Source: Eledone cirrhosa
Lineage: Eukaryota
Assembly (NCBI GenBank): GCA_964016885.1
Contig: OZ024745.1
Coordinates: 87,420,001 to 87,484,000, forward strand
Direction: 5' to 3'
Length of the DNA: 64,000 nucleotides
A program made the position numbers and the translations under genes. The notes beneath the pieces are model-generated. The model was not told the DNA's origin. It saw nothing but the letters and a program-made list of their open reading frames with translations, and did not search any database. This document shows positions 9,595-35,000 of the stretch, one piece after another; the first letter of the stretch is position 1, and every line of letters starts with the position of its first letter.

Positions 9595-9647
<53 letters not shown>

Positions 9648-9891
9648 TGTTTTCTTTATTAACCACAAGGGTTCACATAAAGTAGACATTAAGGACAGTA
9701 CAGGACAATACAGGACGGTACAAATGGGCATTTCTGCGTGTAAAAAAACAGAGGTTGAAATAAAATAACAAAGTAAAATTCCCCAATAGGGGGGAGACTT
9801 CCAAGGGACATTTGTGGAGAAAGCCCATTAAAAGACCACAGTGGCCCTGACCACCAGGGCAAGTGCCCTCTCCCAGTTTTTCACCTTTAAT

Positions 9892-12800
9892 TTATAGACA
9901 CATACTCAGAGAAGGCCCATTCATTCGGGCCATACTTGCTTCTCTCACCCATCTTTCAACAAAATGCTGGGAAGAGAGCACTTCCCTCTCTACCCTGATT
10001 TTCCTTTTCAAATGAAATTTGAAAAAGTTAATCAGGGCATCACCGAAGAGGTAAGTGCTCGTCTTCAGCCCTTTCAAACGTGTCCACCATACTATCTCTT
10101 TCGCCATGGCCACCAGACAGATAAAAACTGCCTGCCCTTCCAGGCTAAAGGAAGGGGGCGGGGCAATCCTCACGATGGACTCAGCTGATAGCTGGATCCG
10201 TCCTACACGTGACAGCAGGTGTTCGACATAAACCCACAAGTCAGCAATGCTCGGACACTGGACGAGTGCGTGCAGGACGGTTTCGTCGCCCTGCGCGCAT
10301 CTCGGACATGCCCGGCTGACGGCACCTCCATGCCTGTAGAGTTTATCCCGAACTGGCAAAGCTCCTCGGTAGCACTGCCAGGCCAGAGATTTCTGGAAGT
10401 TGTCCACAGGCCCCGGCACGAAAGTCCTTCCGAAGAGATTGGCTAGTTGATTTTCGTCGACGCCTAGAGTTTCTCCAAGTACGTCGTCGCTCTTCCCCTC
10501 CACTAATCCCCTATAGAACGCCAAGGTGGAGTTTCCACCGATCACATTGTCCGATTGGTCGAGGGCTGTGAGCGCCTGAAGACATTCCAGTACCCAAGCG
10601 CTCCCTCTCGGTCTTCGATTGACCCAGGACTGCAGCTCCGTCAAGGAGACGAGCTGGGGAAAAACGTGTCTTGCAAACGGCGACCACACCTGATCACCGT
10701 CGAGGAAGAGGTGGAGATGTCGTAGCCTGAGCGCGTGTCTGCGCATCATCAGCCACGGCATGCCCAGCCCTCCACGTAGCGGGTGTTGACAGCAGATGGA
10801 CCGCCTGACCATCGGAGCGCGTCCCTTCCACAAGAAGCGAAAGAGCAAACGCTCCAGCGCAGTCAGGCGGGGCTTAGGACAAAGTACGACGGTCAGGCGG
10901 TAGTAGATGACGGATGCGATGTACGCATTCGCCACCTCCGCTCGACCTTTCAGGGATAGCTTCCTCTCGGCCCATTTCTGGGTGAGAGAAGCCACCCTGC
11001 TCGTCACCTCGTCCCAGTTTTTGTCCGTCTGGAGGTCTGAACCGAACCAGACCCCTAGCAATTTAACCGGTCCGTCCGTCCAGCGCCCGACGACGCTGTT
11101 GGACGGCATGGACCTGCCTCTCCAGGTGCCGAGCTGCAGGCCCACTGACTTTTCCTGGTTGATCATTGCTCCTGTCACCGCTTCGTATTCTCTTAGTGTA
11201 GTGCCGTTGGCCTCGATGTGTTTGGCGTTCGACACCACTACGGTGACATCGTCCGCATATGCTGACACGGATCTTCCGCATCCTAGTTCGCGCGGGACCC
11301 CCTTCAACGTCTCCAGTTTGTGCAGTAATGGCTCGAGAGTCAATACGTACAATAGGGACGAGAGGGGACATCCTTGGCGGACCGAGCGCATGATGTTGAA
11401 CGGTTCCGAAAGGTGACCGTTCACTCTCACTACAGAGCAGATGTCGCTGTCCATGGCAGCGATCCAGCCTCTGAAGACGGGCCCAAAGCTAGCCGCCCTC
11501 AGGACTGCCGCTAGGTAACGATGGTCGACCCTATCGAAGGCTTTCGACTGATCTAAATTGATCAAAGACCCACCCGTGCCAGGTTCCCTAGCTACCCTCT
11601 CTACGATGTATCGCATGAGGTGGAGGTTGTCGTGGATGGATCTGTCGGGAATGGCACATGTCTGTGCCTCTCCCACCAGACCACCAACGACAAGCGCCAA
11701 CCTCTTTGCTAGCACCTTGGCCAAAATCTTGAACTCTGTGTTTAGCAGAGTTATGGGCCTAAAATTATCTATGTTATCCCCCTTGTTCGGATCCTTTCTC
11801 AGCAGCGCCACCGCTCCTCGGCTCACAGAGCTGGGAATTCTCCCGTTCTGTTGCCAGTTGCAGTAGACGTCCGCCAAGAGGCCTCCGAACAAGTTTGGCA
11901 TTTGTACATAAAGTTCATAGGGCAGACCATCCAAACCAGACGATTTTCCCCTTGTGCAACTAGTCATTGCATCCCGTACTTCAGTGGTTGTTATCGGCTT
12001 TTCGCAACACTCCGCCTCAGTGGCCGAAAGCCGCGGCAGTCCGTCGAGGTAGACACTAAAGTCCATCCCTCGATCCGGCCCGCCACTGCCCCCGAACAGT
12101 TGAGCGAAGTGTCGCTGAAAAGCTTCACACATTTGCCCGGGATCGAGTAGCATGCGCCCGTCGTGGTCCACCAAAGACCGGATCGTGGCTTTGTTGCCAC
12201 GACGCGCCTCCGCCACTCGGGCCCATTGAACGGCTTTCGTCCCCTAGTGTCTGAGAGCACGCACCCTAGCTCTGACAACGCAGCCTTCGTGCTTTGCATT
12301 GAAGAATTGGTCAAGGGCCAATTTCGCCGCAAGTACGTCGGTCGCGATGCCTTTGCTAAGCGCCTCATCTAATTTTCTAACTAATTCTCCCTCTGCTCTA
12401 TTTTTCTCTATTGCTAAAGTCTTACTAAACCTAATGGACTCTATTCTAATTGCTCTTTTCAGAGCAAACCACCACTTGTTGTTGACGATGGCCCCCGTCA
12501 ACGCCCGCTTAACTTGTTCGCTAATCCGGTCTCTGTAGGCCTTGCGCGCTGGTAAGGACGCGTTTGGCTTCCAGTAGTCGGGTCCTCGTCTATGAAGCCT
12601 ATCTAAGTCAAGCACACAGATCACAAATTTGTGGTCCGTGTAGCTGACTATCTTGAATTGTGGACAGCCTATGCTAGACCTATCTATTTCCCTACAAAAT
12701 ACTCTATCTAGATATGATCTGGATGACCCTATGCGATTTGTCCAAGTCCACATTGGTACATTCGGGAAATCCATTCGGTACCTGTCAGACAGTTCAAAAC

Positions 12801-13311
12801 GTCTGAGCAGGTTGGTGAGTCTCTTGCACCCTCCTTCCCTATCCACTAATCCCACACAATCCCAGCGTGCATCTAAGATCCCGTTCCAGTCGCCCACTAA
12901 CACTAAAGAGCGGGACGTTCCAAGAAAGGTCTCCAGACGCCGGAAGAAATCAGGCCGCCCTGCTCCTGTCGGGGCATAGACGGCCACTAACCTGAAAGCT
13001 TGCCCGTCTCCGCTGGTCACGTCCAGCACCACCATCTTACCTTCTAGGTCCAGGAAGATGGCCCGTATGGCAAGATCCAAACCTCTCCGAAAAAGCACAG
13101 CAACTCCTCCCCCCGATCCCGGACGGCTGGGAGATGCGTACACATCGTAGCCGCCGAAGATCGGTGCGAAAGCCTGTGCTTCGGAGATTCTGGTCTCGCT
13201 GATGGCCACTACATCTATGTTTAGTGACCTGAGGTCGTTGAGCAGGTGGCCCTGCTTCCATGACGACCCCAAGCCACGCGCATTTATGCTGCCTATTCTG
13301 AGTGAGGTCAT
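9892..13311 (-). pseudogene. Copy A ORF2: APE endonuclease + RT + C-terminal CCHC zinc finger, one in-frame stop at 12244-12246
   Basis: GSINARGL, ISET, VYAP, GDWN, SYLDR, TDHK (APE); SGLDGLP, NFRPITLLN, DQSKAFDRV, VRQGCPLS, AYADD (RT); CPRC..ETVLHALVQC. Confidence 0.92.
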
Positions 13312-13345
13312 GTTGAAAAGGAGTGGAAAAGATGGGAAAGACCAC

Positions 13346-15322
13346 TTACCTTACTTCTCGTAGGGGAAGGACGGTTTTTCCATCCTTTTCACTGCTTGTG
13401 GCCTCCTCAGGAAGGATGTCCTTATAAATCCTCCTGGAGAGTGCTTGTCGGAAGTCTCCGATGTCTTTGGGGAATTTTTGTTTTAGTGTCATGTACGTTT
13501 TCTGTGTGATGCGAGTGATTTGTATGTGTGGAGGTGGTGTGAATTTTGGGGTTGTTGTGTAGTCTTTTTCTGTGATGCTGGTGTTGTGTTGGATGCAGTG
13601 CAATAATTGCTTGTTGTTCAAATTTAATGCTGTGTAGTGTGTATCGTTTTGGTTGTTTTGTTTTGTTTGCGTTTGTTGTGGGTTTGTTTCTGTTTCGCAT
13701 TTTGGTGACTTTTGTGGTGTAGGTGATGGTGGTGTTGGAGTTAATGATGGTGATGGTGTTGGTGTTTGGGTTGATGGGGTTGGTGATGCTGGTGTGGATG
13801 GTGGCATATCTGTCCTAACTTTTTTGTTTCTTAGTTTATTTGTTTCCCTCTGTATTTTGTTTTTGGAGGGGGAAGGAAGAGAATTTTTTCTTTTTTGGCA
13901 CTTTTTTTTTTCCGGATATCGTTTCCCACTCCTCGTCGTCACAATCTTTCTCCAGTTGTGATAGGCCGGGGAGTGGAAAATCCTCCACAGCCGTTAGTTT
14001 TGGTTGTGGTGTGGTGGATGGTGTAGGCGCTGGTGCTAGTTCTGAAGCGTTGGGTGGTGGTGGTGTTGGTTTTGCTGGTGGTGGTAGTGGTGTTGGTTTT
14101 GCTACTGTTGCTGGGGTTGTTGCTGTTATAGTTGCTTCTGTTGTTGCTGCTACAGTTGTTGCTGCCATCTCTGCTACTGGTGGTGTTGATGGTTGTGTCA
14201 CTGGGGTGGGTAGGAGAGGTGGCCTCAACCTTTTAGCCTGAGGGCAGAAAGCCCTTAGGTGGGTTCCTTCACCACAAACGACACACCTAGGTCTTCTTCC
14301 CTCGACAATTACCGTGAGGTGGCTGCCGTCAGTGAGGTCTATTACCTCTGGGATCTCCTCAATGCTTTTTTGGTCCGCTTGGATCAGGAGCTCCATCCCA
14401 GATCCGGACCAGTTTTCCTGCTTTTCTTTTGCTATTGTTATTATTTTCGTGTTGGCCTCGATGCCGGCGAGGACAGCCGCTATTAGCCAGGGAATTTCGA
14501 TGGCCGGTGGAACGTGGGTCACCCTGATCTTTACGAGTCTCTGGCCACAATAGCTTGGGACGAGTGTGAAGGGCCATGGAGTGTTCTCTAGCCTCCTCTG
14601 GTGTTTCAAAGAACACGTCTACGGTTCCATACTTTTGCCCACGTCTGATGTGGGTTTTTCTTGCCCACACATGTCCCAAAGCTTTTTGTATTTGGGACTC
14701 GGATGCCCGTTCCACTCGGCGCGATTTTACATTTATTGTTCTATACGACACGGTGCATAGGCGCCGATGCTCCATTTTATTAGGTGGGTGGGTGAGGCTG
14801 ACCCTGTACCCATCTTTCTTTACCCTTTGTTTGGCATTTTCTAAATCCTCCTGAGTTACCGTAAATGCTTCGAACTGTTTTGCTACTCTGGCGAAACTGA
14901 GGGGGGGGGGGGGTTTATAATGTCATTGTTGTTGTTGTTGCTATCGTTAATATTAATTTTAGTTTCAGTTGTGGTGGTGGTGAGGTCAGTCGTCTTTGGT
15001 GGGGAAGAGTCCATTTTGCTTGATTTCATTTCGACATCACCAGTTAATTTTTTTTTTCTTCTTTTGTTTCTGTTGTCGTGGTGGTGGTGGTGGTGGTGGT
15101 GGTGGTTGTCACGGTGGTGGTGGTGGTGGAGGCTTTAACACCTGCAGTCATTGGTAATGGCGGGAAATGAATGTCTGCCTGAGACAAATTTAAAATATTG
15201 CTAGTGCTTATATTTTTTTTTGTGTTGGCAAACGTAGTAACATTTACAATGGTGGTGTCGGTGTGAGGTGTTAATTTGTGAGGAAGGCTTTCAGCTGCTT
15301 CGTGCAGAGGTGAATTAGCCAT
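13346..15322 (-). pseudogene. Copy A ORF1 (gag-like, CCHC knuckle, Pro/Thr-rich), frameshifted
   Basis: Pieces 15044-15322, 14359-14775, 13836-14609 (CVVCGEGTHLRAFC) and 13346-13942; homologous to ORF1 of B, C and D. Confidence 0.8.
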
Positions 15323-15529
15323 TTTTTTCAAAGAAATTTTTTTGATAATAATAAAAGTTTAAATTTTGGGCACAAGGCCCCAATCTTTTTGGGTGTCCTT
15401 TTCGGAAAACAATGTATGTGCGCTTATAAACAGTTAACAATAAAATTTTCCATAAATGACAATTTTTAACAAACGGAAATAACAAACCTTTGCGGAGCTC
15501 ACGATGATACGATTTACTACGTAGGTCGC

Positions 15530-15589
<60 letters not shown>

Positions 15590-15590
<1 letters not shown>

Positions 15591-15770
15591 TGTTTCTACT
15601 TTAGGCACAAGGCCAGCAAATTACCCAGTGCATTACTGGTACTTTATTTTATCGACCCCGTAAGGCTGAAAGGCAAAGTCAACCTCGGCGGGATTTGAAC
15701 TCAGATCATAAAGGGACGTAACTATGCTGGAAAGCATGGCGTCCGACCCTCTACCGATACTGCCAATCCA
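15590..15770 (-). mobile_element. tRNA-derived SINE
   Basis: A box TGGCAGTATCGG, B box GAGTTCAAATCC, tail CCTTGTGCCTAAAGTAGAAACA followed by (ATT)n. Multiple copies in the window. Confidence 0.9.
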
Positions 15771-15788
15771 TATAATAATAATAATAAT

Positions 15789-18700
15789 GTTTTCTTTATT
15801 AACCACAAGGGTTTACATAAAGTAGACATTAAGGACAGTGCAGGACAATGCAGGACGGTACAAATGGGCATTTCTGCGTGTAAAAAACAAAAACAGAGGA
15901 TGTAACAAAAAATAACAATGAAAAATTCCCCAATAGGGGGGAGACTTCCGAGGGACATTTGTGGAGAAAGCCCATTAAAAAGCCACAATGACCCTGACCA
16001 CCAAGGCAAGTGCTCTCTCCCAGTTTTCCACCTTTAATTTACAGATATATACTCAGAGTAGGCCCATTCACTCGGACCATTCTTGCTTCTCTCACCCATC
16101 TTTCAACAAAATGCTGGGAAGAGAGCACTTCGCTCTCTACTTTTTTTATTTCATTTTCAAATGAAATTTGAAAAAGTCAATCAGAGCATCACCGAAGAGG
16201 TAAGTGCTCGTCTTCAGCCCTTTCAAACGTGTCCACCATACTATCTCTTTCGCCATGGCCACCAGGCAGATAAAAACTGCCTGCCCTTCCCGGCTAAAGG
16301 AGGAGGGCGGGGAAATCCTCACGATGGACTCAGATGATAGCCGGATCCGTCCTAAACGCGACAGCAGGTGTTCGACATAAACGCACAAGTCAGCAATTTT
16401 CGGACACTGGACGAGTGCGTGCATAACGGTTCGTCGCCCTGCGCGCATCTCGGACATGCCCGGCTGACGGCACCTCCATGCCTGTAGAGTTTATCCCGAA
16501 CTGGCAAGGCTCTTCGGTAGCACTGCCAGGCCAGAGATTTCTGGAAGTTGTCCATAGGCCCTGGCCCGAAAGTTCTTCCGAAGAGATTGGCTAGTTGATT
16601 TTCGTCGAAGCCTAGAGTTTTCCCAAGTACTTCGTCGCTCTTCCCCTCCACTAATCCTCTATAGAATGCCGAGGTGGAGTTTCCACCGATCACATTGCCC
16701 GATTGGTCGAGGGCTGTGAGCGCCTGAAGACATTCCAGTCTCCAGGCGCTCCCTCTCGGTCTTCGCTTGACCCAGGACTGCAGCTCCGTCAAGGAAACGA
16801 GCTGGGGAAAAACGTGTCTAGCAAACGGCGACCACACCTGATCACCGTCGAGGAAGAGGTGGAGATGTCGTAGCCTGAGCGCGTGCCTGCGCATCATCAG
16901 CCACGGCATGCCCATCCCTCCACGTAGCGGGTGTTGACAACAGATGGACCGCCTGACCATCGGAGCGCGTCCCTCCCACAAAAAGCGAAAGAGCAAACGC
17001 TCCAGCGCAGTCAGGCGAGGCTTAGGACAAGGTACGACGGTCAGGCGGTAGCAGATGACGGACGCGATGTACGCGTTAGCCACCTCCGCTCGACCTTTCA
17101 GGGATATCTTCCTCTCGGCCCATTTCTGGGTGAGAGAAGCCACCCTGCTCGTCACCTCGTCCCAGTTTTTGTCCGTCTGGAGGTCTGGGCCGAACCAGAC
17201 CCCTAGCAATTTAACCGGTCCGTCCGTCCAGCGTCCGACGACGCTGTTGGACGGCATGGACCTGCCTCTCCAGGTGCCGAGATGCAGGCCCACTGACTTT
17301 TCCTGGTTGATCATTGCTCCTGTCACCGCTTCGTATTCTCTTAGTGTAGTGCCGATCGCCTCGATGTGTTTGGCGTTCGACACCACTACGGTGACATCGT
17401 CCGCATATGCTGACACGGTTCTTCCGCATCCTAGTTCGCGCGGGACGCCCCTCAACGTCTCCAGTTTGTGCAGTAATGGCTCGAGAGTCAATACGTACAA
17501 GAGGGACGAGAGGGGACATCCTTGGCGGACCGAGCGCATGATGTTGAACGGTTCCGAAAGGTGACCGTTCACTCTCACCACAGAGCAGATGTCGCTGTGC
17601 ATGGCAGCGATCCAGCCTCTGAAGACGGGCCCAAAGCCAGCCGCCCTCAGGACTGCCGCTAGGTAACGATGGTCGACCCTATCGAAAGCTTTCGACTGAT
17701 CTAAATTGATCAAGGACCCACCCGTGCCAGGTTCCCTAGCTACCCTCTCTACGATGTATCGCATGAGGTGGAGGTTGTCGTGGATGGATCTGTCGGGAAT
17801 GGCGTATGTCTTCGCCTCTCCCACCAGACCACCAACGACAAGGCCAACCTCTTTGCTAGCACCTTGGCCAAAATCTTGAACTCTGTGTTTAGCAGAGTTA
17901 TGGGCCGGGAATTATCTATGTTATCCCCCTTGTTCGGATACTTTCTCAGCAGTGCCACCGCTCCTCGGCTCATAGAACTGGGAATTTTCCAGTTCTGTTG
18001 CCAGTTGCAGTAGACGTCCGCCAAGAGGCCTCCGAACAAGTCTGGCATCTGTACGTAAAGTTCATAGGGCAGACCATCCAAACCAGGCGATTTACCCCTT
18101 CTGCAGCCAGTCATTGCCTCCCTTACTTCAGCGGCTGTTATCGGCTTTTCGCAAGACTTCGCCTCAGTGGCCGAGAGCCGCGGCAGTCCGTCGAGGTAGA
18201 CACTAAAGTCCATCCCTCGACCCGGCCCACCGCTGCCCCCGAACAGCTGAGTGAAGTGTCGCTGAAAAGCTTCACACATTTGCCCGGGATTGAGTAGCAT
18301 GCGCCCGTCGTGGTCCACCAAAGACCGGATCGTGGCTTTGTTGCCACGACGCGCCTCCGCCACTCGGGCCCATTGAACGGCTTTGGTCCCCTCGTGTCTG
18401 AGAGCACGCACCCTTGCCCTGACAACGCAGCCTTCGTGCTTTGCATTGAAGAATTAGTCAAGGGCCAATTTCGCCGCAAGCACGTCGGTCGCAATGCCTT
18501 TGCTAAGCGCCTCGTCTAATTTTCTAACTAGTTATCCCTCTGCTCTATTTTTCCCTATTGCTAAAGCCTTACTAAACCTAATGGATTCTATTCTAATCGC
18601 TCTTTTCAGAGGAAACCACCACTTGTTGTTGACGATGGCTCCCGTCAACGCCCGCTTAACTAGTTCGCTAATCCGGTCTCTGTAGGCCTTGCGCGCTGGT

Positions 18701-21700
18701 AAGGACGCGTTTAGCTTCCAATAGCCGGGTCCTCGTCTATGAAGCCTATCTAAGTCAAGCACACAGATAACGAATTTGTGGTCCGTGTAGCTGACTATCT
18801 TGAATTGTGGACAGCCTATGCTAGACCTATCAATTTCCCTACAAAATACTCTATCTAGATATGATCTGGATGACCCTATGCGATTTGTCCAAGTCCACAT
18901 TGGCACATTCGGGAAATCCAATCGGTACCTGTCAGACAGTTCAAAACGCCTGAGCAGGTTGGTGAGTCTCTTGCACCCTCCATCCCTATCCGCTAATCCC
19001 ACACAGTCCCAGCGTGCATCTAAGATCCCGTTCCAGTCGCCCACTAACACTAAAGAGCGGGACGTTCCAAGAAAGGTCTCCAGACGCCGGAAGAAATCAG
19101 GCCGCCCTGCTCCTGACAGGGCTACGGCCACTAGCCTGAAAGCTTGCCCGTCTCCGCTGGTCACGTCCAGCACCACCAGCTTACCCTCTGGGTCCAGGAA
19201 GATGGCCCGTATGGCAAGATCCAAACCTCTCCGAAAAAGCACAGCAACTCCTCCCCCCGATCCAGGACGGCTGGGAGATGCGTACACATCGTAGCCGCCG
19301 ACGATCGGTGCGAAAGCCCGTGCTTCGGAGATTCTGGTCTCGCTGATGGCCACTACATCTATGTTTAGTGACCTGAGGTCGTTGAGCAGGTGACTCTGCT
19401 TCCATGACGACCCCAAGCCACGCGCATTTATGCTGCCTATTCTGAGTGAGGTCATGTTTAAAATAGAGTGGAAAAGATGGGAAAGACCACTTACCGTACT
19501 TTTGGTAGAGGAGGGATGGTTTTTACATCCCTTTTCACTTGATCGTTTGGTGAAGGGACCGTTGAATCGTCCCTTCGGCTGGTCGTCGGCTCTTCTAAGA
19601 GAATGTCTGAATATACTCTTCGATTGATAGTTCCTCCTAGGTCCCTGAAATCACCAACTGCGTTGGGGAATTTCGTTTTAATGTTTGTGTATTGTTTCTG
19701 TGCTATTTTTAGCAGTCTTATGTTAGTTGGCGTTTTGATTGGTGCTGGTATTATGTAGTCCTGTTGTGAAATGTCTGTGTGTTCAATTATGTAAGTCATT
19801 AGTTTCTTGTTGTGTGTATTTATTGCCGTGCATTTGTTTTTCTGGGGGTGGGGTGTGGTTCTGCTATTTTCTTGTCGTTGTTGCTGGGTGTGTGTGTTTT
19901 GTTGTTGTGTTTGCGATGTTGGTGCTTGTGGTGGTGGTGTTGAAGGTGTTGTTGGCGGTGGGGTTGTCACCGGTGGTGATGGTGGTGCTAGTGTAGGTGG
20001 TGATGGTGTTGGTGGTGTTGCTGCTGTGGGTCTCTTTGCAGTAGACTTTACCCTTTTCTCATTTCTTTTCTCCCTTTTCAAAGGCGACGATGCGCTGCTT
20101 CTGCGTTTGTGCCTTCTTACGACCATTTGCCATCCCCCTCCCACCTCACACTCCATGTCTGATTCTGTGAGGTCGGGGAGGGGTACCAGCTCCACTCTTT
20201 CACTTGTTGTTGTTGGTGATGTTTGCACTGGAGTCTCTGTTGCAGCTGCATTTGGTATTGCTGTTGTTGTTGTTAATATTTCCACTGCTGCTGCTGTTTT
20301 TGATTTCCGTGGCGTGGGTATGGGTGCCACGGACCTATCGTTCCTGGTTGCCGCTTGTCCTGTTGCTGGTAGTTGTGGAGCCGGTTTCGGAAGGAGGGGG
20401 GTTTTCTCCTTTCTCAGGGTCTTCTCGTTGCAGAAGCACCTGAGGTGAGTCTTCGATCCACAGCGAAAGCATTTCGGGCGTTTGCCCTCAACACTTATGG
20501 GCAGTTGAGTGCCGTTATCGAAGTCTATCACATCCGGGATAGCTTCGATGCACTCCTGGTTGGTTTGGATTACCATCTCAATGGAGGTGCCGACCCAATC
20601 TTTTCTTACTTTTTTCTGTACTTGCAGTACAGTTGTTTTGTCCTCGATTCCGACGAGGACAGACGCGGCCAGCCAAGAAGGGGCCATTCCGGGGGGGACG
20701 TGGGTCAGTTTGACCCTCACAATTTTTTGCCCGCAGTAGGAGGGCACCAACACCATTTCCTCGCTCCTTAGGGTCACTACGGATTGGGCCTTTGCCTCCT
20801 GGGGTGTGGCAAAAAGTACGTCTACGGTGGCATATTTTTTGCCTCGGGTGATGTGCGTTTTCCGCTGCCACACAGACCCCAAGGCTTTTTGTATTTGGGC
20901 CTCTGTGGCTCTTTCCACCCTACGGGATTTTGTACTTACTCTACGTTACATGACCGTACAGTGCTGTTGGGTTTCGAAAAATTTTTCCGCTGCCTTGCAG
21001 ATTGCTCGGTGTCCATTCTTTGTCACCATCTTCTTCACTTCCGCTAATTCCTCATTTGTTATGAGGATTGTTTCCAAGTTTTTCGCAATACCTGCAAATG
21101 AGATTGGTTTTTCTTTGCTGCTGTTGTTGTTGTTGTCGTCAGAGCTGCTGTTACTTTTGTTGTTGCTGCAGGTACTACGACTACTGCCTTCGCCGCTGTT
21201 GCTGTGGTTGTTTTTGGTGTTGCTGCTGCTAATGCTGTTGTTGTTTATGCTGCTGGTGATGCTGTTGCGGCTGCTACTTTTGTTTTCATTGTCACTGTTG
21301 CTGTTGTTATTACGGCTGCTACTGCTATTATTCCTGACGTCAGACGAATGAACTGGGTTTTCGTATTTCCCGCACACCTGTTTCGTCGCTGTCGTCCTGG
21401 AGAAACCTTGCACGCTTTGCACGAGACTTTTCTTTTCTTTCGTCGCCTGCGAAAGCGAAGGGAGGGAGAGAGACACATTTAAAGAAGGGAGGGAGAGAGA
21501 CAATCTTCTCTCTGCTGTAGTGATGATTGAGGAAGAAGTAGACGGAATGAGTGGGAGTGACCTATGCAAATTCTTTTTCGTAGCCATGTTGATTTTTTTG
21601 TTTAAAATAAATATTGGGTACAAAACCCCAATAAGCAGTTATTTAACCCCGAAGGGCCAAATAACGGGCAGAAAGACCCCTCTCACGAGGAGGAGGGTGT

Positions 21701-21803
21701 TTTTGTCTACAAGTTGGTCTAAGTTTTAAACAATTTACAATTGTTATAGCGTTCAAAATTTACAGTACCTTACAGAGCCGAGCCTCCGTCAACCATAGCA
21801 TTC
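15789..21803 (-). mobile_element. Tx1-type element, full-length copy B (C-type 5' UTR/ORF1 + A-type ORF2/3' UTR)
   Basis: ORF2 19455 to ~16038 with a stop and frameshifts, nearly identical to A. ORF1 ~21587-19491 with one in-frame stop at 20946 (CFRCGSKTHLRCFC), very similar to C. Confidence 0.92.
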
Positions 21804-21847
<44 letters not shown>

Positions 21848-21849
<2 letters not shown>

Positions 21850-24800
21850 GTCAAATGATAAAATCGCATACCGGATCGGTCGTCACCCGAGTCAAAAAGG
21901 GCCTTGTACCTCAGAGAGGAACCAGAGTGGGGTCGGAAAATCAGTTAATGGTTCAAACCTTCCCATCACTTCGGAGCTGGAGACCTCCCATAACCGGAAT
22001 ACCCCTACTGTTGGCCCTCCATGCTCACCACCAAGAAATCCAAAGAAAAAGAAAGAAACATGGTCAAGGGAAGACAATAAAGAAGTCCTTGAGGCTTTCT
22101 ACACTGCCATGTACTACCCATCAAATAGATCGAATACAGAACAGACATATATCAACTGGAAAAAGAAACATACCGAAAACAGAGGCTATATTGACAGTAA
22201 CAAACTAGCCAATATACGACTATTAGCACAAAGTCAGCGAAGGGAAAATGAAACATGGGTCAGTGGAAACGAGGTAAATTGTAACACTTCGAAGTCCAGG
22301 TTTGGAGCGGAATCACTGACAACAAATCAAATTAAAGAAAGGATCGAAAAAGTGGAGGGAGTGCATGCTCAAGATGAAACTCAAAATGAAAACAATGAGA
22401 TCGTAAATGATAAAGAAATGAATGAGAATGAACTTGCCAACTTGAAGGATGGAATTATGATCGAATGGATGAAAATGAAAGAATCTGACATGGAGAAACG
22501 AGACACTCTACCTAAGATCCAGAACTCCAAACAGAACCAAAAGATAATACACAAGACTAACACAATTCTCAAAAGCATTATCATCACAAACAAACTAAAC
22601 ATTACTGATCTAAATCATCTGTATTATGCATTGGCTAAAGTCACCACTCATTTATGTGGAGTGAAAATGAAAAAACAAAGGACTTCCCACAAGAAATCTA
22701 CTTGGCAAGAGAACATCAATCACCAAATAAACCTTCTCCGATCTGACATAGAAATTTTAACAAACTACAAAGTAGGTGAACATGTTAAACAAACTAAACT
22801 TAGAAAATTGAAAAGAAAATACAGTATAAAATCAACAAGTGACATAGACATGCTGATAGAAATAATCAAGCAAAGAGTGTCGGCCAAAGCTGCTCGTATA
22901 AGGCGCTTTGAAAAACGATCTAGATTCTATAAGGAAAATAATATGTTCAAAAACAACCAAAGAAACTTCTACAGAAAAATTAGCAAGTCAACAATAACTG
23001 CAAATCAATACCACCCAAGGAGGAAGGGCAAGAATTCTGGGAAAAGATCTGGGCCGAAGAAAAAGTTCATAATATACATGGCTCATGGATAGACAGACAA
23101 ATGAAATATATAGCTTGAGGAGCAAACATGGGAAAATATGACAGTTGAACAGTTGCGTTTGGCTCTTAGAAAAACCAGCAAATGAAAATCCCCAGGAAAA
23201 GACAAAATACCAAATTTTTGGATAAATGCCTTCATAGAGTCTCATGAGCTGTTAGCCCAACTTTACAATGAAATAGTTAAGGAGCCAGAAAAGATACCAT
23301 CATGGCTAGTTAACGTCATTACATTCCTACTTCCAAAGAATGATGAGACAAACATTCCCAAAAATTACAGACCGATAACTTGCTTGACCACAATGTATCA
23401 ATGTATAACATTTTAACATCAGTCCTAACTGAATATACATATGACCACCTGATAACAAATGATCTATTTCCCAATGAGCCGAAAGGGTTTAAACGAGGCT
23501 CATATGTCTGTAAAGATCAGCTTTTGGTTAACAAAATGATATTGGAAGATTGTCATAATAGACAAAAGAATCTATCAATTGCTTGGATAGATTATAAAAA
23601 AAGCATTCGATAGTTTGCCACACAGTTGGATTGAAAAATGTTTAGGGATTTTCAAAATATCTCCCGTTGTCAGGAGGTTCCTGTCATTCAGTATGAAGAC
23701 ATGGAAAACGACACTCCTTTTGAATAGTGAAAAAAAATCACTGGAAGCTGGTGAAGTTAATATTAATTGTGGAATTTTTCAGGGTGACTCTTTATCACCG
23801 CTTTTATTCTGCATCTCACTTATACCATTAAGTAAAATGCTCAATGAAACAAAACACACATATATAAAGTCTTGTTCTACACGGATGACCTGAAACTATT
23901 TGCAAAAAATGATGAACAATTGCAAGGGCTATTATCCACTGTGAAGCCGTTCAGTGATGACATTAAAATGGAGTTTGGACTAGATAAATGCGCCAAAGCA
24001 ACGTTCACCAGAGGAAAGCTGCTGAAAACTTCAGACATTAATCTTGATCGGGGGAATGTGATACGAGAACTTGATCAAGAGGAAACTTACAAATATCTAG
24101 GTGTTTGTGAAGGAGACGGGATCAAGCACTCGACAATGAGGGAAAGGACAAGGAAGGAATGTTACCGCAGAGTAAGAGCGGAATTGAATGCAAGGAATAG
24201 GATCGATACCATAAACACACTTGCCATACCAGTAGTAACATACAGTTACAATGTCATCAACTGGTCAAGCACAGAGATCCGTAGGCTCGATACAAAAATT
24301 AGAAAATTCTTAAACTTGCACAGAATGCATCACCCTAAGACAGATACAAATAGAATATATCTCCCTAGGAAAGAAGGAGGGCGTGGGTTAATCACGTTAG
24401 ACATTGCGTTGAAAACTGCAACAATTGGATTATCTACATATCTAAGGGAATCACATGATTGGATGATCAAACTCGTTTTGAAACACGAAAGCATCAAAAG
24501 ATCATACTCCATTACAAAAGATGCACAAAGATACAGTAATGGACTACAAATTTCAGAAGTTCCATTTACTGCTGAAATGAATAACAGAAAAAGCAAAGCA
24601 GGTAAAAGTAACTGCAAAGAAAGATCTGCTACAGAAACTGGATGGAAAATACCCAGAATGAGCTAACAATCCTGATGTTGACAAAACTTTAACCCATCAG
24701 TGGTTGGCATCCTCTGGACTGAAATCGGAGACTGAACTGAAGGACTGATTATATCAGCACAAGATCAGTGTCTGCCAACAAAAAATTACCAAGCAAACAT

Positions 24801-25515
24801 AATAAAAAATGGATGCAACCCATTATGCCGTGTATGTAAAAACAACCAGAGACCATTGATCATACAATTTCAATGTGCAGTCCTATAGTTCCAACCGAAT
24901 ACCTAAACAGGCATGACAGAGCTGCACAATACATACATTGGATAATGTGTAAGCATTTTGACCTGCCCCATCAAAAGTATTGGTGGGAGCATCAACCACC
25001 TCCAGTACTTGAGAAAGATCACATCTCAATCTTGTGGAACTTTAGCATCCCTAACAGACCGAAAAATAGATGCAAATAGACCTGATATAATACTGAAGGA
25101 CTTTAAAAAGAGGGTATGCCTGCTAATTGATATGTCCGTTCCAATAGACAAGAATGTATCTATAAAAACATTTGAAAAATTGAGCAAGTATAAGGACCTG
25201 GAAATAGAAATTGGAAAAATGTGGAAATTGAGAACTAAAACAATACCAGTGGTTGTAGGCGCTCTAAGAATGATACCTAAGGGGTCTAATGATTACTATA
25301 CCGCGTATAGGAGAAATACGAAATATAGTACTAATGGGAACTGCCTATATACTAAGGAAGATTCTGTCAATATAAGTACATCACAAGTCTAAACACCTAA
25401 AGATGCATGTTTGTGTATGTATGTTCTTTCTTGAACATGGCGGACCTTGTTGTCCCTGAGATCACTAGTTGTGACTTGGTGATAACTCGTATGAACATAA
25501 AGCAAGATAAATGCA
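21848..25515 (+). mobile_element. R4/Dong-type non-LTR retrotransposon, near full length, degraded
   Basis: N-terminal ETWSREDNKEVLEAFY; RT motifs NYRPITCL, AWIDYKK, GIFQGDSLSPLLF, FYTDDLKL, YKYLG; zinc knuckle; endonuclease NRPDII..LIDMSVP..EKLSKYKDL. Flanked by (AAT)n on both sides. Confidence 0.92.
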
Positions 25516-25557
25516 ACTGTAATAATAGTAATAATAATAATAATTATAATAATGGGA

Positions 25558-25923: not shown

Positions 25924-25937
25924 GAATAATAATAATA

Positions 25938-26122: not shown

Positions 26123-26123
26123 C

Positions 26124-26159
<36 letters not shown>

Positions 26160-26161
<2 letters not shown>

Positions 26162-29100
26162 TATCTTTATTGGCCACAAGGGCTGACATGAAAGAAAAAC
26201 ATTACTCACGGCACCGAACGGTTCAGGACGGTACGATGTGGGTTTTGTACGTGTAAAGATTTTTATTATTTATATAGGAAAAGAAAAAAAGGACATAGAA
26301 ACATATATATATTTCAACAATACAAATGAAAATTGAAACAATGAAAAATTCCTCAACAGGGGGGAAACTTCCGAGTGTTACTCGTGGCGAAAACTACACA
26401 AAAGACCACTACAAGCCTGACCACCAGGGCAAGCGCCCTCTCTCAATTTTTCCATTTCTCAAACTACAGGCGTATATTCAGAGCGGTCCCGTTCACTCGG
26501 ACCATTCTCGCTACATTAACCAACTTTCAACAAACTTGCTAGAAAACAGCACTTGCCTCTCCACCCTGATTTTCCTCTTCAAGTAAAACTTGTAAAAGTT
26601 AATCAGAGATTCGCCGAAGAGGAAAGTGTCTCTCTTTAACCATTTCAACCTTGTCCACCACACAATCTCTTTTACCATGGCCACCAGGCAGTTGAAAACC
26701 GCCTTCCCTTCGTCCTCGAAGGAAGACGGCGAGACCATCTTCCCAATGGACTCAGTTGAAAACCGGATCGGTACTACACGCGACAGCAACTGTTCGACAT
26801 AGCTCCACAAGTCAGCAATGCTCGCGCACTGAACGAGTGCGTGCACGACGGTTTCGTCGCTCTGTGCGCATCTCGGACAGGCTCGGCTGACGGCATTTCC
26901 GTGCCTGTAGAGCTTATCTCGAACCTCTATAGAACGCCGAGGTGTATGTTCCACCGATACTGGTGCCCAGCTGGTAGAGAGCAGTGAGCGCCTGGAGACA
27001 TTCCAGTTTCAAAGCGCTATCCCTCGGTCTTTTCCTGACCCAGGACTGCAGCTCCGTCAAGGAGACGAGCTGTGGGTAAACGTGCCTGGCGAACGGCGAC
27101 CACATCTGTTCACTGTCAAGGAAGCACCAGAGATGTCGCAACCTCAGCGCATGTTTGCCCATCATCAGCCATGGCAAGCCCAGTCCTCCACACAACGGGT
27201 GACGACAGAAGATGGATCGTCTGACCATGGGAGCGCGTCCCTTCGAGAAAAAGCGGAAGAGGAGGCGCTGCATTTTGGAGAGAGTTGGGCCGGGGCAATG
27301 GACGACGGTGAGGTGGTAGCAGATGACGGATGCGATGTACGCATTCGCCACCCCCTCCCGGCCTTTCAGGGACAGCTTCCTCTCGGTCCATTTCTGGGTG
27401 AGGGAGGCCACCCTGCCCATCACCTCACTCCAGTTTTTCTTCATCTGGAGGTCCGGTCCGAACCAGACCCCTAGCAATTCAACCGGTCCGTCAGTCCGAC
27501 GCCCCACGACACTGTCGGACGGCATGGATTGCCTCTCCAGGTGCCGAGCTGCAAGCCCACCGACTTTTCCTTGTTTATCTTTGCTCCTGTCACCGCTTCG
27601 TATTCCTTGAGAGCGGTGCCGAGCATCTGGACGTGTCTGGTGCTCTCCACGACCATGGTAATGTTGTCGGCGTAAGCCGACTTGGAATTCCAGTATCCTA
27701 GTTTGCGTGGGACGCCCCTCATCGCCCCCAGTTTGTGCATTAACGGCTGCAGAGCCAATACGTACAAGAGGGACGAGGACGGACAACCCTGGCGACCAAG
27801 CGCATGATGCTGAACGGCTACGACAGGTGACCATTCACCCTCACAACTGAGCAGATGTCGCTGTACACCGCAGCAATCCAACCCCTGAAAACGGACCCGA
27901 AACCGGCTGCCTCGAGGGACTGCCGCCAGGTACCGATGATCGACCCTATCGAATGCTTTGTATTGATCCAAATTGATCAGGGCCCCACCCGTGCCAGGTT
28001 CTTTAACCACCCTCTCTACGATGTATCGCATGAGGTGGATCTGTCCGGAATGGCGCATGTATGCGCCTCTCCATCGAGACCCTCGAAGACAAGCACCAAA
28101 CTCGTTGCTAACACCTTGGCCAAAATCTTGAACTTTGCGTTTATGGGCCTGACATTATCGATAACATACCCCTTGTTCGGGTATATTCTCAGCAGCGCCA
28201 CTGCTCTCCGGCTCACAAAACTGGGAATGCTCCCTTCTGCAGCCAGTTGCAGTAGACGTCTGCCAAGAGGTCACCGAACAAGTCTGGCATAAATGCACAA
28301 AGCTCGTAGGGCAGACCATCCAAACCTGGCGATTTACCCTCGTGCAGTTAACCATAGCTTCCCGTTTTTCACAGGCTGTTATTGGCTTTTCGCAACATTG
28401 TGCTGCGGTCGTTGAGAGCCGAGGCAGTCCGTCGAGGTATGCACTGAAGTCCATACCCCGATCCGGGCCGCCGCTGATCCCGAACACTTCAGCAAAGTGC
28501 TGCTGAAAAGCTTCACACATCTGCTCGGGTTCGAGCAACACGTGCCCGTTTTGGTCAGATAAAGACCGAATTGTGGGAGTGTTGCCACGACGCGCCTCTG
28601 CCACCCGGGCCCATTGGACGGCTTTTGTCCCCTCGTGTTTCAGAGCACGAGCTCTAGCTCTGACAACGCAGCCTTCGTGTTTTGCGTTGAAGAATCGGTC
28701 GAGTGCCAATCTCGCCGCAAGAACGACTGTTACTATGCCTGTCCTAACCGCCTCTTCTAGCTTTCTCACCAGCTCTCCCTCTACTCTATTTTCCTCTATC
28801 ACAAGTCCTTTGCTAAACCTAATCGACTCTACTTTAATTGCCCTTTTCAGGCCGAACCACCACCTGTTGTTGACGACCGCTCCCGTCAACACCCGCTTAA
28901 CTAATACGCTAATCCGGTCTCTGTAGGCTTGGCGCGCCGGGAAAGACACGTTCAGCTTACAGCAACCGGGTCCTTGTCTATGAAGTGTGTCTATGTCGAT
29001 CTCTCAGATCACAAATTTGTGATCTGTGTAGTCGACTATTTTAAATTGTGGACAACTTATACTAGCCTTATCTAGTTCTCTTCAGAATACCCTATTGAGA

Positions 29101-32049
29101 TACGATCTGGATGACCCGATGCGGTTTGTCCATGTCCACATTGGCACATTCGGGTGATCCAGTGGATACCTGCCATACAGTTCAAAACGACTCTGCAGGT
29201 TGTTGAGGCTTTTATACCCTCCTGCCCAGTCTACTAGCCCCACACAATCCCAGCATGCATCCAAGATACCGTTCCAGTCACCCACTAACAATAAAGAGCG
29301 GGACGTTCCAAGAAAGGTCTCTAGACCTCTGAAGAAATCTGGCCGTCCTGTCCCTGTCGGGGCATAGACGGCTACTAGACTGAAAGCGTTGCCTTCGGTG
29401 CCGCTTACGTCCAGCACCACCGACTTACCTTCTGGGTCCAGGAAGATGGTCCGTATGGCGCGACCCAAGCCTTTCCGAAACAACACAGCCACTCCGCCCC
29501 CCGCTCCCGGACGGCTTGGCGATACGTACACCTCGTAACCGTCGAAGATCGGTGCAAAAGCTTGCGTTTCGGAGATTCCCGTCTCGCTGATGGCCACGAC
29601 ATCTATGTTTAGTGACCTGAGGTCGTTAAGCAGGTGACGCTGCTTCCAAACCGAGCTCAAATCACGCACATTTACACTTCCGATCCTGAATACGGCCATG
29701 TTGGGTGAGGAACGGGGAAAGTGAGAAAGAATCACTTACCTTGATCGTCTGGTGTAGGGACCATTGATTCGTCCCTTCGGCTGGTCGTCGGCTCTTCTGT
29801 GAGTATATCCGAGTATACTCTCCGGTTGAGTATCCCTCCTAGGTCTCTGAAATCACCAACTGCTTTGGGGAATTTCATTTTAATCTTTGTGTATTGTTTC
29901 TGTGATATTCTTGCCAGTCTTATGTTCGTTGGTGTTTTGATTGGTGCTGGTATTATGTAGTCGTGCTGTGAAATGTCTGTGTGTTCAATTATGTAAGTCA
30001 TTAGTTTCTTGTGTGTATTTATTGCTGTGCATTTCTTTTTCTGGGGGTGAGGTGTGGTTCTGCTATTTTCTTGTCGTTGTTGCTGGGTGTGTGTGTTTTA
30101 TTGTTGTGTTTGCGATGCTGGTGCTTGTGGTGGTGTTGTTGAAGGTGTTGTTGTTGGCGGTGGGGTTGCCGCCGGTGGTGATGATAGTGCTAGTGTGGGT
30201 GGTGATGGTGTTGGTGGTGTTGCTCCTGTAAGTCTCTTTGCAGTAGCCTTCACCCTTTTTTCATTTCTTCCCTCCCTTTTCGAAGGCGGCGATGCGCTGC
30301 TTCTGCGTTTGTGCCTTCTTGCGACCTTTTTCCACCCCTCTCCCACCTCACACTCCATGTCCGATTCTGTGAGGTCGGGGAGGGGTACCAGCTCGACTCT
30401 TTCACTTGTTCTTGTTGGTGATGATTGCAGTGGAGTCTCTGTTGCAGCTGCAGTTGGTATTAATGTTGTTGTTAATACTTCCACTGCTGTTGCAGTTCTT
30501 GATTTCCGTGGCGTGGGTATGGGTGCCACAGACCTATCGTTCCTACTTGCCGCTTGTCCTGTTGCTGGTAGCAGTGGAGCCGGTTTCGAAAGGAGGGGGG
30601 TTTTCTCCTTTCTCGGGGTCTTCTCATTGCAGAAGGACCTGAGGTGAGTCTTCGACCCACAGTGAAAGCATTTCGGGCGTTTGCCTTCAACACTTATGGG
30701 AAGTTGAGTGCTGTTATCGAAGTCTATCACATCCGGGATAGCTTCGATGCACTCCTGGTTGGTTTGAATTAACATCTCAATGCAGGCGCCGACCCAATCT
30801 TCTCGTACTTTTTTCTGTACTTGCAGTACGGTTATTTTGTCCTCGATTCCAACGAGGACAAACGCGGCCAGCCAAGAAGGGGCCATCCCGGGGGTGGGGG
30901 GTGGGGGGGGGGAACTTGGGTCAGTCTGACCCTCACAATTTTTTGCCCGCAGTAGGAGGGCACCAACACCATTTCCTCGCTCCTTAGGGTTACTAAGGAT
31001 TGAGCCTTTGCCTGCTGGTGTGTGGCAAAAAACACGTCCACGGTTGCATATTTATTGCCTCGGGCGATATGCGTTTTCCCCTGCCACACAGACCCTAAGG
31101 CTTTTTGTATTTGAGCCTCTGTGGCTCTTTCAACACTACGTCATTTTGTGCTTACTGTACGGTACGTGACCGTACGGTGCTGTTGGGTTTCGAAAAATTC
31201 TTCGGCTGCCTTGCAGATTGCTCGGTGTCCGATTTTCCTCACCATCTTCCTTGCTTCCTGTAATTCCTCATTTGTTATAAGGATGGTTTCCAGGTTCTTT
31301 GCGATACCTGCAAACGAGATTGGTTTTTCTTTCTTGTTGCTGTTGTCGTCAGAGCTGCTGTTACTTTTGTTGTTGCTGTTGGTAACACGGCCGCCGCCGC
31401 CGCTGTTGCGGCTGTTATTGTTGTTGTTGCTGCTGCTGCTGCTGCTGTTGATGTTTATGCTGCTGTTGATGTTGTGGCGGCTGCTACTAGTATTTTCCTC
31501 GCCACTGTTGCTGCTGCTGCTGTTATTACGGCTGCTGCTATTCTTCATGACGTCAGACGAAAGACATGGCTTTCCGTATTTACCATACACATCTTTCGTC
31601 GTTGTCGTCGTCATGGAGAAATGTTCCACGGTACGCGCGTTCTCTTGATGAAGAACGCTACGAGAAACTACATTTTTCTTTTTCTTTAATGGCGTCGCTT
31701 GCGAAAGAGGTGACAAAGGCGACACCACATTTAGAGAAGGGGGGAGACAATATTTTCTCTGACGTAATGACGATTGGGGAAGAAGAAGACGGAAGGAGTG
31801 GGAGTGACTTGAGAAAATTCTTTTTTGTAGCCATGTTTTTTTACGGTTTAAAATGAATATTGGGCACAAATCCCCCATAACTAGTTATTTAACCCCGAAG
31901 GGCCAAATAACGGGCAGAAAGACCTCTCTCACGAGGAGGAGGGTGTCTTTATCTACAATTTGGTTCAAGTTTTAAACAATTTACAATTGTTATAACGGTT
32001 AAAATTTACAATAAATTACAGAGCCGAGCCTCCGTCAACCATGGCATTC
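26160..32049 (-). mobile_element. Tx1-type element, full-length copy C, degraded
   Basis: ORF1 ~31834-29732 and ORF2 from 29699, both with stops, frameshifts and deletions. 5' end matches copy B. (AAT)n on both sides. Confidence 0.9.
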
Positions 32050-32081: not shown

Positions 32082-35000
32082 TGATTTCTTTATTGGCCAC
32101 AAGGGCTGACATCAAGAAAAATATTACAGACGGCACAGGACGGTACAGGACGGTACGATGTGGGTTTTGTCCGTGTAAAAATTTTTATTATTTATATAAG
32201 AAGCGAAAAAGAAAAAAGACATAGAAACATATATATATATATATATATAAAGAATAAAAATGAAAATTCAACCAATGAAAAATTCTCCAATAGGGGGGAA
32301 GCCTCCGAGGGTTACTCGTGGCGAAAACCTCACAGAAGACCACGGCCACCCTGACCACCAGGGCAAGCGCCCTCTCTCAATGTTTCCCCATTCCTCAAAC
32401 TACAAGCGTATATTCAGAGCGGTCCCGTTCACTGGGACCATTCTGGCTACATTCACCCACTTTCTAGAAAACAGCACTTGCCTCTCCACCCTGATTTTCC
32501 TCTTCAAGTGAAAAAGTTAATCAGGGGTCGCCGAAGAGGAAAGTGTCTCTCTTTAAACCTTTCAACCATGTCCACCACACAATCTCTTTCGCCATGGCCA
32601 CTAGGTAGATGAAAACCGCCTTCCCTTCCTCCGCGAAGGAAGACGGCGAGACCATCTGCCCAATGGACTCAGTCGAAAACCGGATCGGCCCTACACGAGA
32701 CAGCATCTGTTCGACATAGCTCCAAAAATCAGAAAAGCTCGGGCACTGAACGAGTGCGTGCAGGACGCTTTCGTCTCCCTGTGCGCATCTCGGACAGGCT
32801 CGCCTGACATCACTTCCGTGCCTGTAGAGTTTATCTCGAACCGGCAAAGCTCCTGTTCACCGTCAAGGAAGCACCAGAGATGTCGCAGCCTCAGCGCATG
32901 TTTGCGCATCATCAGCCAAGGCATGCCCAGTCCTCCACGCAACGGGTGTTGACAGCAGATGGATCGTCTGACCATGGGAGCGCGTCCCTTCCACAAAAAG
33001 TGGGAGAAGAGGCGCTCCATTTTGGTGAGAGTTGGGCCCGGGAAAGTTGATCAGGGCCCCATCCGTGCCAGGTTCCTTAACCACCCTCTCTACGATGTAT
33101 CGCATGAGCTGGAGGTTGTCGTGTATGGATCTGTCCGGAATGGCGCACGTATGCGCCTCTCCCACGAGACCCTCGACGACAAGCGCCAAACTCGTTGCTA
33201 ACACCTTGGCCAAAATCTTGAACTCTGGGTTCAGCAGAGTTATGGGCCTTAAGTTATCGATAACATCCCCTTGTTCGGGTCTTTTCTCAGCAGCGCCACC
33301 GCACCCCGGCTCACAAAACTGGGAATGCTCCCGTTCTGCTGCCAGTTGCAGTAGACATCTGCCAAGAGGTCGCCGAACAAGTCTGGCATATACGCATAAA
33401 GCTCGTAACGCAGACCATCCAAACCTGGCGATTTACCCCTCGTGCAGTCAGACATCGCTTCTCGTATTTCACCTGCTGTTATCGGCTTTTTGCAGCACTG
33501 CGCTGCGGTCGTCAAAAGCCGCGGCACTCCGTCGAGGTATGCACCAAAGTCCATACCCCGATCCGGCCCGCCGTCGCTCCCGAACAATTGAGCAAAGTGC
33601 TGTTGAAAACCCGCACACATCTGCTCGAGTTCGAGCAACATGTGCCCGTTTTGATTAGGCAAAGACCGAATAGTGGACCTGTTGCTACGTCGCGCCTCCA
33701 TCACCTGTACCATTAAACGGCTTTCGTGCCCCCGTGTGTCTCAGGGCACGCGCTCTAGCTCTGACAACGCAGCCTTCATGCTTTACTTTGAAGAATTGGT
33801 CGCGTGCCAATCTCGCTGCAAGCTCGTGGTTGCGATGCCTGTCATAAACGCCTCTTCTAGTTTTCTAACTAACTCTCCCTCTACTCTATCACTACTCCTT
33901 TGATAAATCTTATCGATTCCTCCCTAATAGCCCTTTTCAGGCTAAAGCACCACCTGTTGTTGACGATCGCACTCGTCAACGCACGCTTAACTAATTCGCT
34001 AATCCGGTCTCTGTAAGGTTTGCGCGCCGGGAACGATGAGTTCAGCTTGCAGTAGCCGTGCCCTTGCCTATGGCGTCTATTTAAATAAACTTCACAGATC
34101 ACAAATTTGTGGTCCGTGTAGTAGACTACTTTAATATGTGGTCAGCCTACACCAGCCTTATCTGTTTCCCTATAGAATACCCTATCTAAATACGATCTAG
34201 ATGACCCGATGCGGTTTGCCTATGTCCACCTTGGCACATTCGGGTGATCCAGTCTATACCTGTCAGACAGTTCAAAACGTCTGAGCAGGTTGTTGAGGAT
34301 TTTACACCACTGCCCTGTCTACTAGTCCTACATACTCCCAGCGTGCATCTAAGATACCGTTTCAGTCGCACACTAACACTAAGAGCGGGACGTTCCAAGA
34401 AAGGTGTCTAGACGTCTGAAGAAATCTGGCCGTCCTGGTCCTGTTGGGCCGTAGACGGCTACTAGTCTGAAAGCGTTGCCTTCGCTGCCGGTCACCTCCA
34501 GCACTACCGACTTACCTTCTGGGTCCAGGAAGATGGCCCGTATGGCGAGATCCAAGCTTCACCGAAAAAGCACGGCAAACCTTCCCCTCGTTCCTGGACG
34601 GCTGGGAGATGCGTATACAACGTAGCCGCCGAAGATCGGTGAGAAGGCTCGTGCTTCGGAGATTCTGGTCTCGCTGATGGCCACCACATCTATGTTTAAT
34701 GACCTGAGGTTGTTGAGAAGGTGACCCTGCTTCCAAGATGACCCCAGGAGACGTACATGTATACAGCCTGATCTAAGTACGGCCATGTTGGATGAGAAAC
34801 GGGGTAAGTGAGAAAGGATCACCTACCTTCATCGTGTGGTGAAGGGACAGTAGAAACGTCCCTTTGGCTGGTCATGGGTGCTTCCAAGAGGATGTCAGTG
34901 TATATCCTCTTGGTAACCGACCCTCTAAAGTATCCAACTGCGTTGGCGAATTTTTCTTTTAACAGTTTGTACTGTTCTATTTTGATTTCAATTAAGTTTA

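Follow-up and report, generated by a model that had tools for sequence, protein, structure and literature searches.

The LINE family B is a chimera of single origin with a derived double ORF1 tail, in which the 5' half of one family (C) is combined with the 3' half of another (A), and it arose once, by a join at the donor motif at the end of ORF1 that was probably made by splicing. A preliminary description of the window, i.e. the whole stretch of 64,000 nucleotides analysed here, had proposed a splice-made chimera from the copy of B found in it. The chimera is borne out by what follows, whereas the splicing step is only favoured, by the conservation of the motif independently of reading frame, by a second donor-exact join (L332) and by the existence of stacks in which an A element follows a C element. 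The features concerned are as follows (a slash within a sequence marks the point of splicing or joining):

15789..21803, minus strand: element B, a full-length copy of the chimeric family between (ATT)n arrays, composed of a C-type 5' UTR and ORF1 followed by an A-type tail, spacer, ORF2 and 3' UTR
19491..21587, minus strand: ORF1 of B, with a CCHC knuckle and the double tail at its end
16039..19455, minus strand: ORF2 of B, frameshifted in the window copy; homology to A indicates AP endonuclease, RT and zf-RVT domains
26160..32049, minus strand: element C, a degenerate copy, whose family is the source of the 5' half of B
9646..15530, minus strand: element A, directly downstream of B, whose family is the source of the tail, ORF2 and 3' UTR of B
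19537..19538, minus strand: chimeric junction CAAG/TGAAAAGG, the AG being common to both parents as a 2-nt microhomology
19496..19537, minus strand: A-derived second ORF1 tail of B, with an extra G; in old B0 copies otherwise equal to old A copies
13391..13393, minus strand: CAG/T site in the ORF1 tail of A at which the 3' half of B starts, a putative weak acceptor with its AG at 13393-13392

Along the minus strand the stack in the window runs D, C, a fragment, an unrelated element, B and A, with (ATT)n separating most members and bounding A, B and C each; such stacks are also found at other loci, in keeping with the head-to-tail arrangement in (ATT)n first described. The unrelated element (21848-25520) is degenerate and RT-bearing and lies between C and B on the same strand. 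A short element of ~180 nt is furthermore found between the ATT arrays of stacks (15591-15773 and 25925-26123 in the window); it recurs at other loci, with very high read depth in one run, and is probably a SINE. An 18-bp tandem repeat of 44 copies, with open frames on both strands, occupies 6229-7025. The window copy of B has one in-frame stop in ORF1 (20946-20948).

Chimeric structure and single origin of family B

On the minus strand C reads ...GACGATCAAG/GTAAGT at 29740/29739, A reads ...CACAAGCAG/TGAAAAGG at 13392/13391 and B reads ...AACGATCAAG/TGAAAAGGGATG at 19538/19537, all as previously given. Over the 2,266 nt upstream of the join B is 86% identical to C, its similarity to A being confined to short patches, and over the 3,749 nt downstream it is 94.9% identical to A and ~80% to C, in agreement with the earlier assignment of the two halves. 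The join is indeed out of register, with both ORF1 tails and an extra G present in B. This G had been credited with keeping the fused tail in frame to the A-type stop, and it does keep the A frame, but it is not needed for a stop, since the frame without it terminates 5 nt earlier; its effect is therefore to restore the A-type frame rather than to rescue termination. The G is present in 269 old-grade copies and absent from 4, and the latter, being so few and scattered over sub-lineages, are more likely secondary losses than representatives of the primary product. L154 may be a candidate for a primary product lacking the G, and four old A copies that also carry it may be recombinants or represent the parent type.

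The junction pattern of B has 2,420 exact matches in the 3.0-Gb genome, hence B, with at least 2,420 copies, is a family and not a lone copy; intact donor patterns occur 4,407 times in A and B taken together and 583 times in C and D. Among 30 loci with the ORF1 end of C, 21 are C-type (one being the window's own), one is a deletion and 8 belong to an older grade, B0, which shares the junction of B and whose tail is that of old A copies with one G added. Separate trees were built from 73 selected rows for ORF1 and 83 for ORF2, near-identical young copies having been thinned before both. In the ORF2 tree A, B0 and B group in one clade (SH-aLRT 100) to the exclusion of the single-tailed F, C and D, and in the ORF1 tree B0 falls within the C cluster at a distance of 2-3 shared substitutions, the single-tailed D being outside and young B reached via intermediates. 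The ORF1 of B thus groups with C and its ORF2 with A, from which it also follows that the double tail is derived. The opposite polarity, with an ancestral double tail of which A and C each lost one part by deletion, had been raised at the outset as an outcome that would undo the chimera. It is contradicted by the position of B0 in both trees and by the single tail of family G, supporting evidence was sought and none was found, and we regard it as extremely improbable.

The ORF1 of one family and the ORF2 of the other have also been combined between A and B, in homologous register (L029, L096, L128 and L160), and splicing is therefore not the sole route by which ORF1 and ORF2 are swapped. L051 and L106:9910 have a C- or D-type ORF1 and a spacer before an ORF2 basal to the C group, with the breakpoint off the donor. 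Runs of B-type donors on one strand at a spacing of ~6-7 kb, five at G000:C1:55427395-55453333 and three at C1:56165990-56178081, are tandem arrays of the same family.

The donor motif at the end of ORF1

The motif at which the C-type half ends is not particular to C, as the ORF1 ends proper to A, B and D carry it too:

29716..29742, minus strand: ORF1-end donor of C, AAG/GTAAGT (29740/29739), with a predicted 9-bp hairpin starting from the -1 base; one mismatch in the window copy
13344..13352, minus strand: ORF1-end donor of A, AAG/GTAAGT, last upstream base 13350
19489..19497, minus strand: own ORF1-end donor motif of B, CG/GTAAGT, last upstream base 19495, overlapping the ORF1 stop
34821..34829, minus strand: ORF1-end donor of D, a single-tailed outgroup, AAG/GTAGGT, last upstream base 34827

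The sequence AG/GTAAGT, which is the consensus U1-binding 5' splice site, is located 38-40 nt ahead of the ORF2 ATG in the majority sequences of A, B (as CG/GTAAGT), C, D, D2, F and G, the last being a family whose endonuclease start is only ~60-66% identical to that of A and whose ORF1 tail is unalignable. When the majorities of A, C, D, F and G are compared, all 9 motif positions are invariant, whereas upstream of the motif 2 of 27 positions are and downstream of it 6 of 33. Of 30 G copies 27 have the exact G/GTAAGT, as have 8 of the 13 old F copies; motif counts for the other families are biased by the fetching of loci, and the C class includes some misfiled B variants. The phase in which ORF1 crosses the motif is 2 in A and B but 1 in G and in all 11 C loci whose open frame is at least 150 aa long, and protein constraint therefore does not explain the motif. 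It is a feature of this clade, since among 8 distant L1-like elements from metagenome contigs (26-31% identity) only L414 has something similar at the ORF1 stop, namely GTGAGT; L407 has GTGAG ~60 nt inside ORF1, and the other six are without the motif. In L414, ~100 nt before the ORF2 match, the donor-like end of ORF1 reads GGT GAG TAA, in the same phase as in G.

In structure predictions the pyrimidine tract behind the donor pairs with the motif, usually as a hairpin. In C, D and D2 the predicted stem extends from -1 to +8 and has 9 bp, with z ~ -2 to -4 in 8 of 11 copies; in G it has 7 bp and is shifted in register, in F it has at least 6 bp, and in A and B the pairing is no better than that of shuffled tracts. 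The pair at +8 is A-U in C and D but G-C in F, both sides having changed. Such a hairpin, if formed, would hide the donor from U1.

Ordinarily the motif likely serves to bind U1 without being spliced as a matter of routine, a notion suggested by analogy with Ty1/copia elements and by the fact that neither of two candidate acceptors is conserved. The first of these, a strong CAG in the 3' UTR that would make the whole of ORF2 an intron throughout the clade, was rejected because the site exists only in A and B and is absent from C, D, D2 and G; it reads CAG/AAATGCC behind a long pyrimidine tract (window position 9733, minus strand, with a matching site in B) and belongs to the top 5% of the AGs of A. 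Rejected likewise was a mini-intron of 52 nt that would fuse ORF1 to ORF2, since the fusion is in frame in A and B and not in C, D, F and G, and a search with patterns spanning the junctions concerned found no genomic copy without the segment. This GT...CTCAG segment lies at 13349-13298 in A and at 19494-19443 in B, both on the minus strand, and the AG near ORF2 codon 5 has no consistent phase relation across families. In L103, on the minus strand upstream of locus position 4819, a GTGAGT with its pyrimidine tract leads almost directly into an A-like 3' UTR with an ATT tail, and this short derivative is possibly a non-autonomous element.

That a U1-type site is retained at the ORF1 stop irrespective of reading frame suggests control at the RNA level, either of ORF1 versus ORF2 expression or of termination. 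Whether the expression control of this octopod LINE clade includes a 5' splice site at the ORF1 stop that is gated by a hairpin, and whether this site, the elements being piled head to tail in (ATT)n, occasionally splices promoter and ORF1 of one family onto the ORF2 of a neighbour, we consider to be evenly balanced. If it does, the spliceosome would act as a module-shuffling recombinase for retrotransposons, and one of its products would be the largest family sampled.

Splicing, template switching and other routes to the junction

Further donor-exact joins were searched for genome-wide as ORF1 ends continued by non-donor sequence, with patterns that represent ~80-84% of the possible continuations at even base use. 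For A/B donors, of which 4,407 are intact, there were 40 variant matches and no splice-conform join; apart from chance hits and point variants these matches comprise small deletions, two inversions and a single large deletion, which has no AG. The 5 variant matches for G donors were all small changes, none of them splice-conform. For C/D donors one pattern set gave 11 matches (8 B variants, one deletion within the tail of B and 2 chance hits); a second gave 50, and among the 40 of these that were inspected B variants number 36, the others being 2 chance hits and one duplicated 6-nt deletion, while the other 10 all continue with TGG, a known B0 variant; and a third gave a single match, L332 (G000:C7:35091394, plus strand; locus 1516/1517). 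In L332 a D2-type ORF1 is joined at the exact donor, and in frame, to CTTTGCCAG/TTCGGG near the end of an A-lineage ORF2 (the zinc-finger end), followed by a 3' UTR and an ATT tail; judged by its sequence, it is an ORF1-only element. The corresponding site in the window is:

10352..10354, minus strand: CTTTGCCAG/TTCGGG in ORF2 of A, window counterpart of the site used by L332 elsewhere in the genome

The 3' part of L332 is 78-83% identical to the A lineage and 69-73% identical to C/D/D2-type ends, which makes it a second inter-family join, and most inspected C and D copies are without an AG at the join site. It is a single old copy whose acceptor score is average and in which the AG at the join is again a 2-nt microhomology. 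As to the stacks, in 4 of 20 C loci the element that comes directly next is an A element that has its 5' part, old-grade A in 2 of these, and A-like elements follow 3 of the 7 D2-type loci mapped.

Over 884 kb of aligned elements, among which are some loci in duplicate and references, 74 deletions of at least 40 nt were called, 37 with a microhomology of 2 nt or more and none with GT-AG ends. Under a null for viable out-of-register C/A joins that is weighted by the microhomologies of these deletions, 0.9-1.5% fall at the donor with an AG and 0.02-0.08% are the exact B junction, and by a hand estimate ~0.04-0.1 donor-exact joins would be expected by chance among the 583 C/D donors and 0.2-0.3 among all families, the nulls for B and L332 being post hoc and ignoring hot spots. 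Given these expectations L332 provides only moderate support.

If B was made by splicing, either a read-through RNA across a C-then-A stack or trans-splicing would have brought the C exon onto the weak CAG in the ORF1 tail of A, two possibilities that are indistinguishable in B. The motif would bind U1 snRNP but normally be masked by the hairpin and only rarely be spliced, and the weak CAG may have been chosen because an element with two working ORFs results only from acceptors that lie just upstream of the ORF2 start. Insertion of the G would then have restored the A-type frame before amplification, and the joined RNA, having kept the promoter, ORF1, a stop near the ORF2 start and ORF2, would have been retrotransposed to ~2,400 copies. 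Splicing is favoured because the breakpoint fits an exact exon end, which the above null makes rare, because the 190 nt before ORF2 hold 17 AG, of which the A site and only one other are YAG, and a nearby CAAG homology was skipped, because the motif is invariant across families and in two phases, because L332 is donor-exact at a CAG and none of the 74 ordinary deletions has GT-AG ends, and because the C-then-A stacks exist and no intermediates of a two-step origin were found among 19 matches. The two-step origin, by a 5-nt AGTGA homology combined with loss of GTAAG, was rejected since 0 of 19 and 0 of 5 matches are intermediates; loss of GTAAG as such does happen (A copies L129 and L133, G copy L441).

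A possible but not a probable alternative is template switching by the RT, or DNA deletion in a C-then-A stack, at the 2-nt AG microhomology, whereby the hairpin would steer the event and the bases just 5' of the C/D stem would be the first accessible landing site, no splicing being involved. Template switching would have a structural reason to land at the donor, since the hairpin starts there in C and D, and it speaks against splicing that both donor-exact joins come from C and D2, where the predicted 9-bp stem begins at -1, as it also does in D, in contrast to the weak pairing in A and B. The acceptor of B is moreover very weak, as had been cautioned from the start, its 4 pyrimidines in 15 placing it in the weakest tenth by pyrimidine count, where 91% of the 394 AGs of A score at least as high. 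The other early caution also holds, in that the AG shared by both parents is expected under microhomology as well, half of the ordinary deletions having 2 nt or more of it. The in-register A/B swaps are likewise in agreement with template switching, as is L225, an unselected large deletion that starts 2 nt into a B0 donor; two non-splice deletions (L157 and L247) end within 2 nt of the A site used in B. It should also be mentioned that the 4,407 A/B donors, although more numerous and less masked, gave no spliced copy, an absence that is softened by the consideration that most spliced RNAs would lack ORF2 and be poorly mobilised.

Template switching is, however, in poor agreement with the CAG at both joins and with the fact that a 4-nt CAAG microhomology 3 nt upstream, which it should favour, and a 10-nt in-register homology both went unused in B, and it leaves unexplained why an exact U1-complementary 9-mer is kept while the register of the hairpin shifts between families. 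A combination of the two processes can also be envisaged, in which the free C-type 5' exon from the first splicing step was the acceptor template for an RT jump from A-type RNA, the spliceosome setting the left end and the RT making the join. Non-LTR RTs jump to RNA 3' ends, and such a jump would account for the exact left end together with the poor acceptor, but it does not predict the CAG on the right side in both joins and seems very unlikely to us. Splicing thus remains the favoured origin of B, and it is directly testable, as both parents, the intermediate grades and the required stacks are still in the genome.

Relation to known systems

ORF2 contains the Pfam domains PF03372, PF00078 and PF13966 (AP endonuclease, RT and zf-RVT), its best PDB matches are LINE-1 ORF2p (E ~1e-42, as against 1e-21 for R2), and the order of its domains and the separate ORF1 (21587-19491) upstream of the ORF2 start at 19455 are those of the L1 clade. 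Named homologs are from Argonauta hians and Octopus sinensis, which makes an octopod the likely host; a named Tx1 reference was not found, the homologs compared for this purpose being unnamed or hypothetical. Insertion into a specific repeat target is common in Tx1 elements, and A, B and C lie head to tail, each bounded by (ATT)n; the Tx1 label used in the preliminary description is plausible. The ORF1 of B has the sequence CX2CX4HX4C and zf-CCHC clusters as Atlas neighbours (0.91-0.94), without a Pfam match, and a search for ORF1 homologs found none.

The origin of new LINE 5' ends and ORF1s is an open question to which template switching is the usual answer. ORF1 swapping occurs in L1-clade elements, and replacement of ORF1 or the 5' UTR is usually attributed to RT template switching or homologous exchange. 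Like B, such replacements yield a new ORF1/ORF2 combination that amplifies, but the join in B differs in being out of register and on a conserved donor. Turnover of the 5' UTR in the L1 clade is treated in the accessible text of PMC13174262. The repeat annotation of Octopus vulgaris (PMC13282606) lists 13 L1-Tx1 families with recent activity, its main text containing no mention of splicing, and the accessible part of PMC5203782 contains nothing on LINE splicing. In the literature covered, consisting mostly of open papers without their supplements and of few Repbase reports, we found neither a LINE-to-LINE ORF1/ORF2 swap at a conserved ORF1-end donor nor a description of a U1-type site at the ORF1 stop of non-LTR elements.

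Spliced L1 copies are known as SpIREs, which in the accessible text of PMC5860796 arise within one L1, in the 5' UTR or from 5' UTR to ORF1, and are described as dead ends. They resemble B in having an internal LINE junction that matches a donor and an acceptor, and their conserved donor, which is rarely used and possibly masked by structure, is similar to the ORF1-end donor described here; the GT donor and AG acceptor are likewise present in the unspliced parents of B and L332, the AG being at the same time a 2-nt microhomology. SpIREs are however spliced within one element, whereas in B and L332 two families are joined at the end of ORF1, and a dead end is in poor agreement with at least 2,420 B junctions, even if the single copy L332 may fit that description. 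A splice origin of B, if true, would contradict the dead-end view of spliced LINE copies.

Host exons are furthermore cis- or trans-spliced onto L1, including RAP1GDS1/L1PA2, and some of the products are still mobile; as far as the accessible texts go, such chimeras of mRNA and LINE-1 have been proposed as a route for the evolution of LINE 5' ends (PMC13174262; bioRxiv 10.1101/2025.02.02.635956). As may be the case in B, an upstream exon is joined at its donor to a LINE that keeps coding capacity, but there the exon is a host exon joined at or near the 5' UTR, whereas B received the whole 5' UTR and ORF1 of another LINE and thereby an ORF1/ORF2 swap. The best functional analogy for the motif is the shGAG intron of plant Ty1/copia elements, for which the accessible text of PMC5580714 describes a conserved U1 site near the end of Gag with a second role in blocking premature termination, and in both cases a U1-type donor is found at the end of the structural ORF. 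The plant LTR elements however have a defined acceptor and a demonstrated spliced RNA, whereas the LINEs described here are known from DNA and have no acceptor conserved across families.

Spliced L1 copies, splice chimeras of host exons and L1, and a U1 site at the Ty1/copia Gag end are thus already known; new here are a motif kept across families in two ORF1 frames and next to unalignable tails, and a second donor-exact inter-family join. Among chimeras that resemble spliced L1 copies, B is unusual in having founded a large family.
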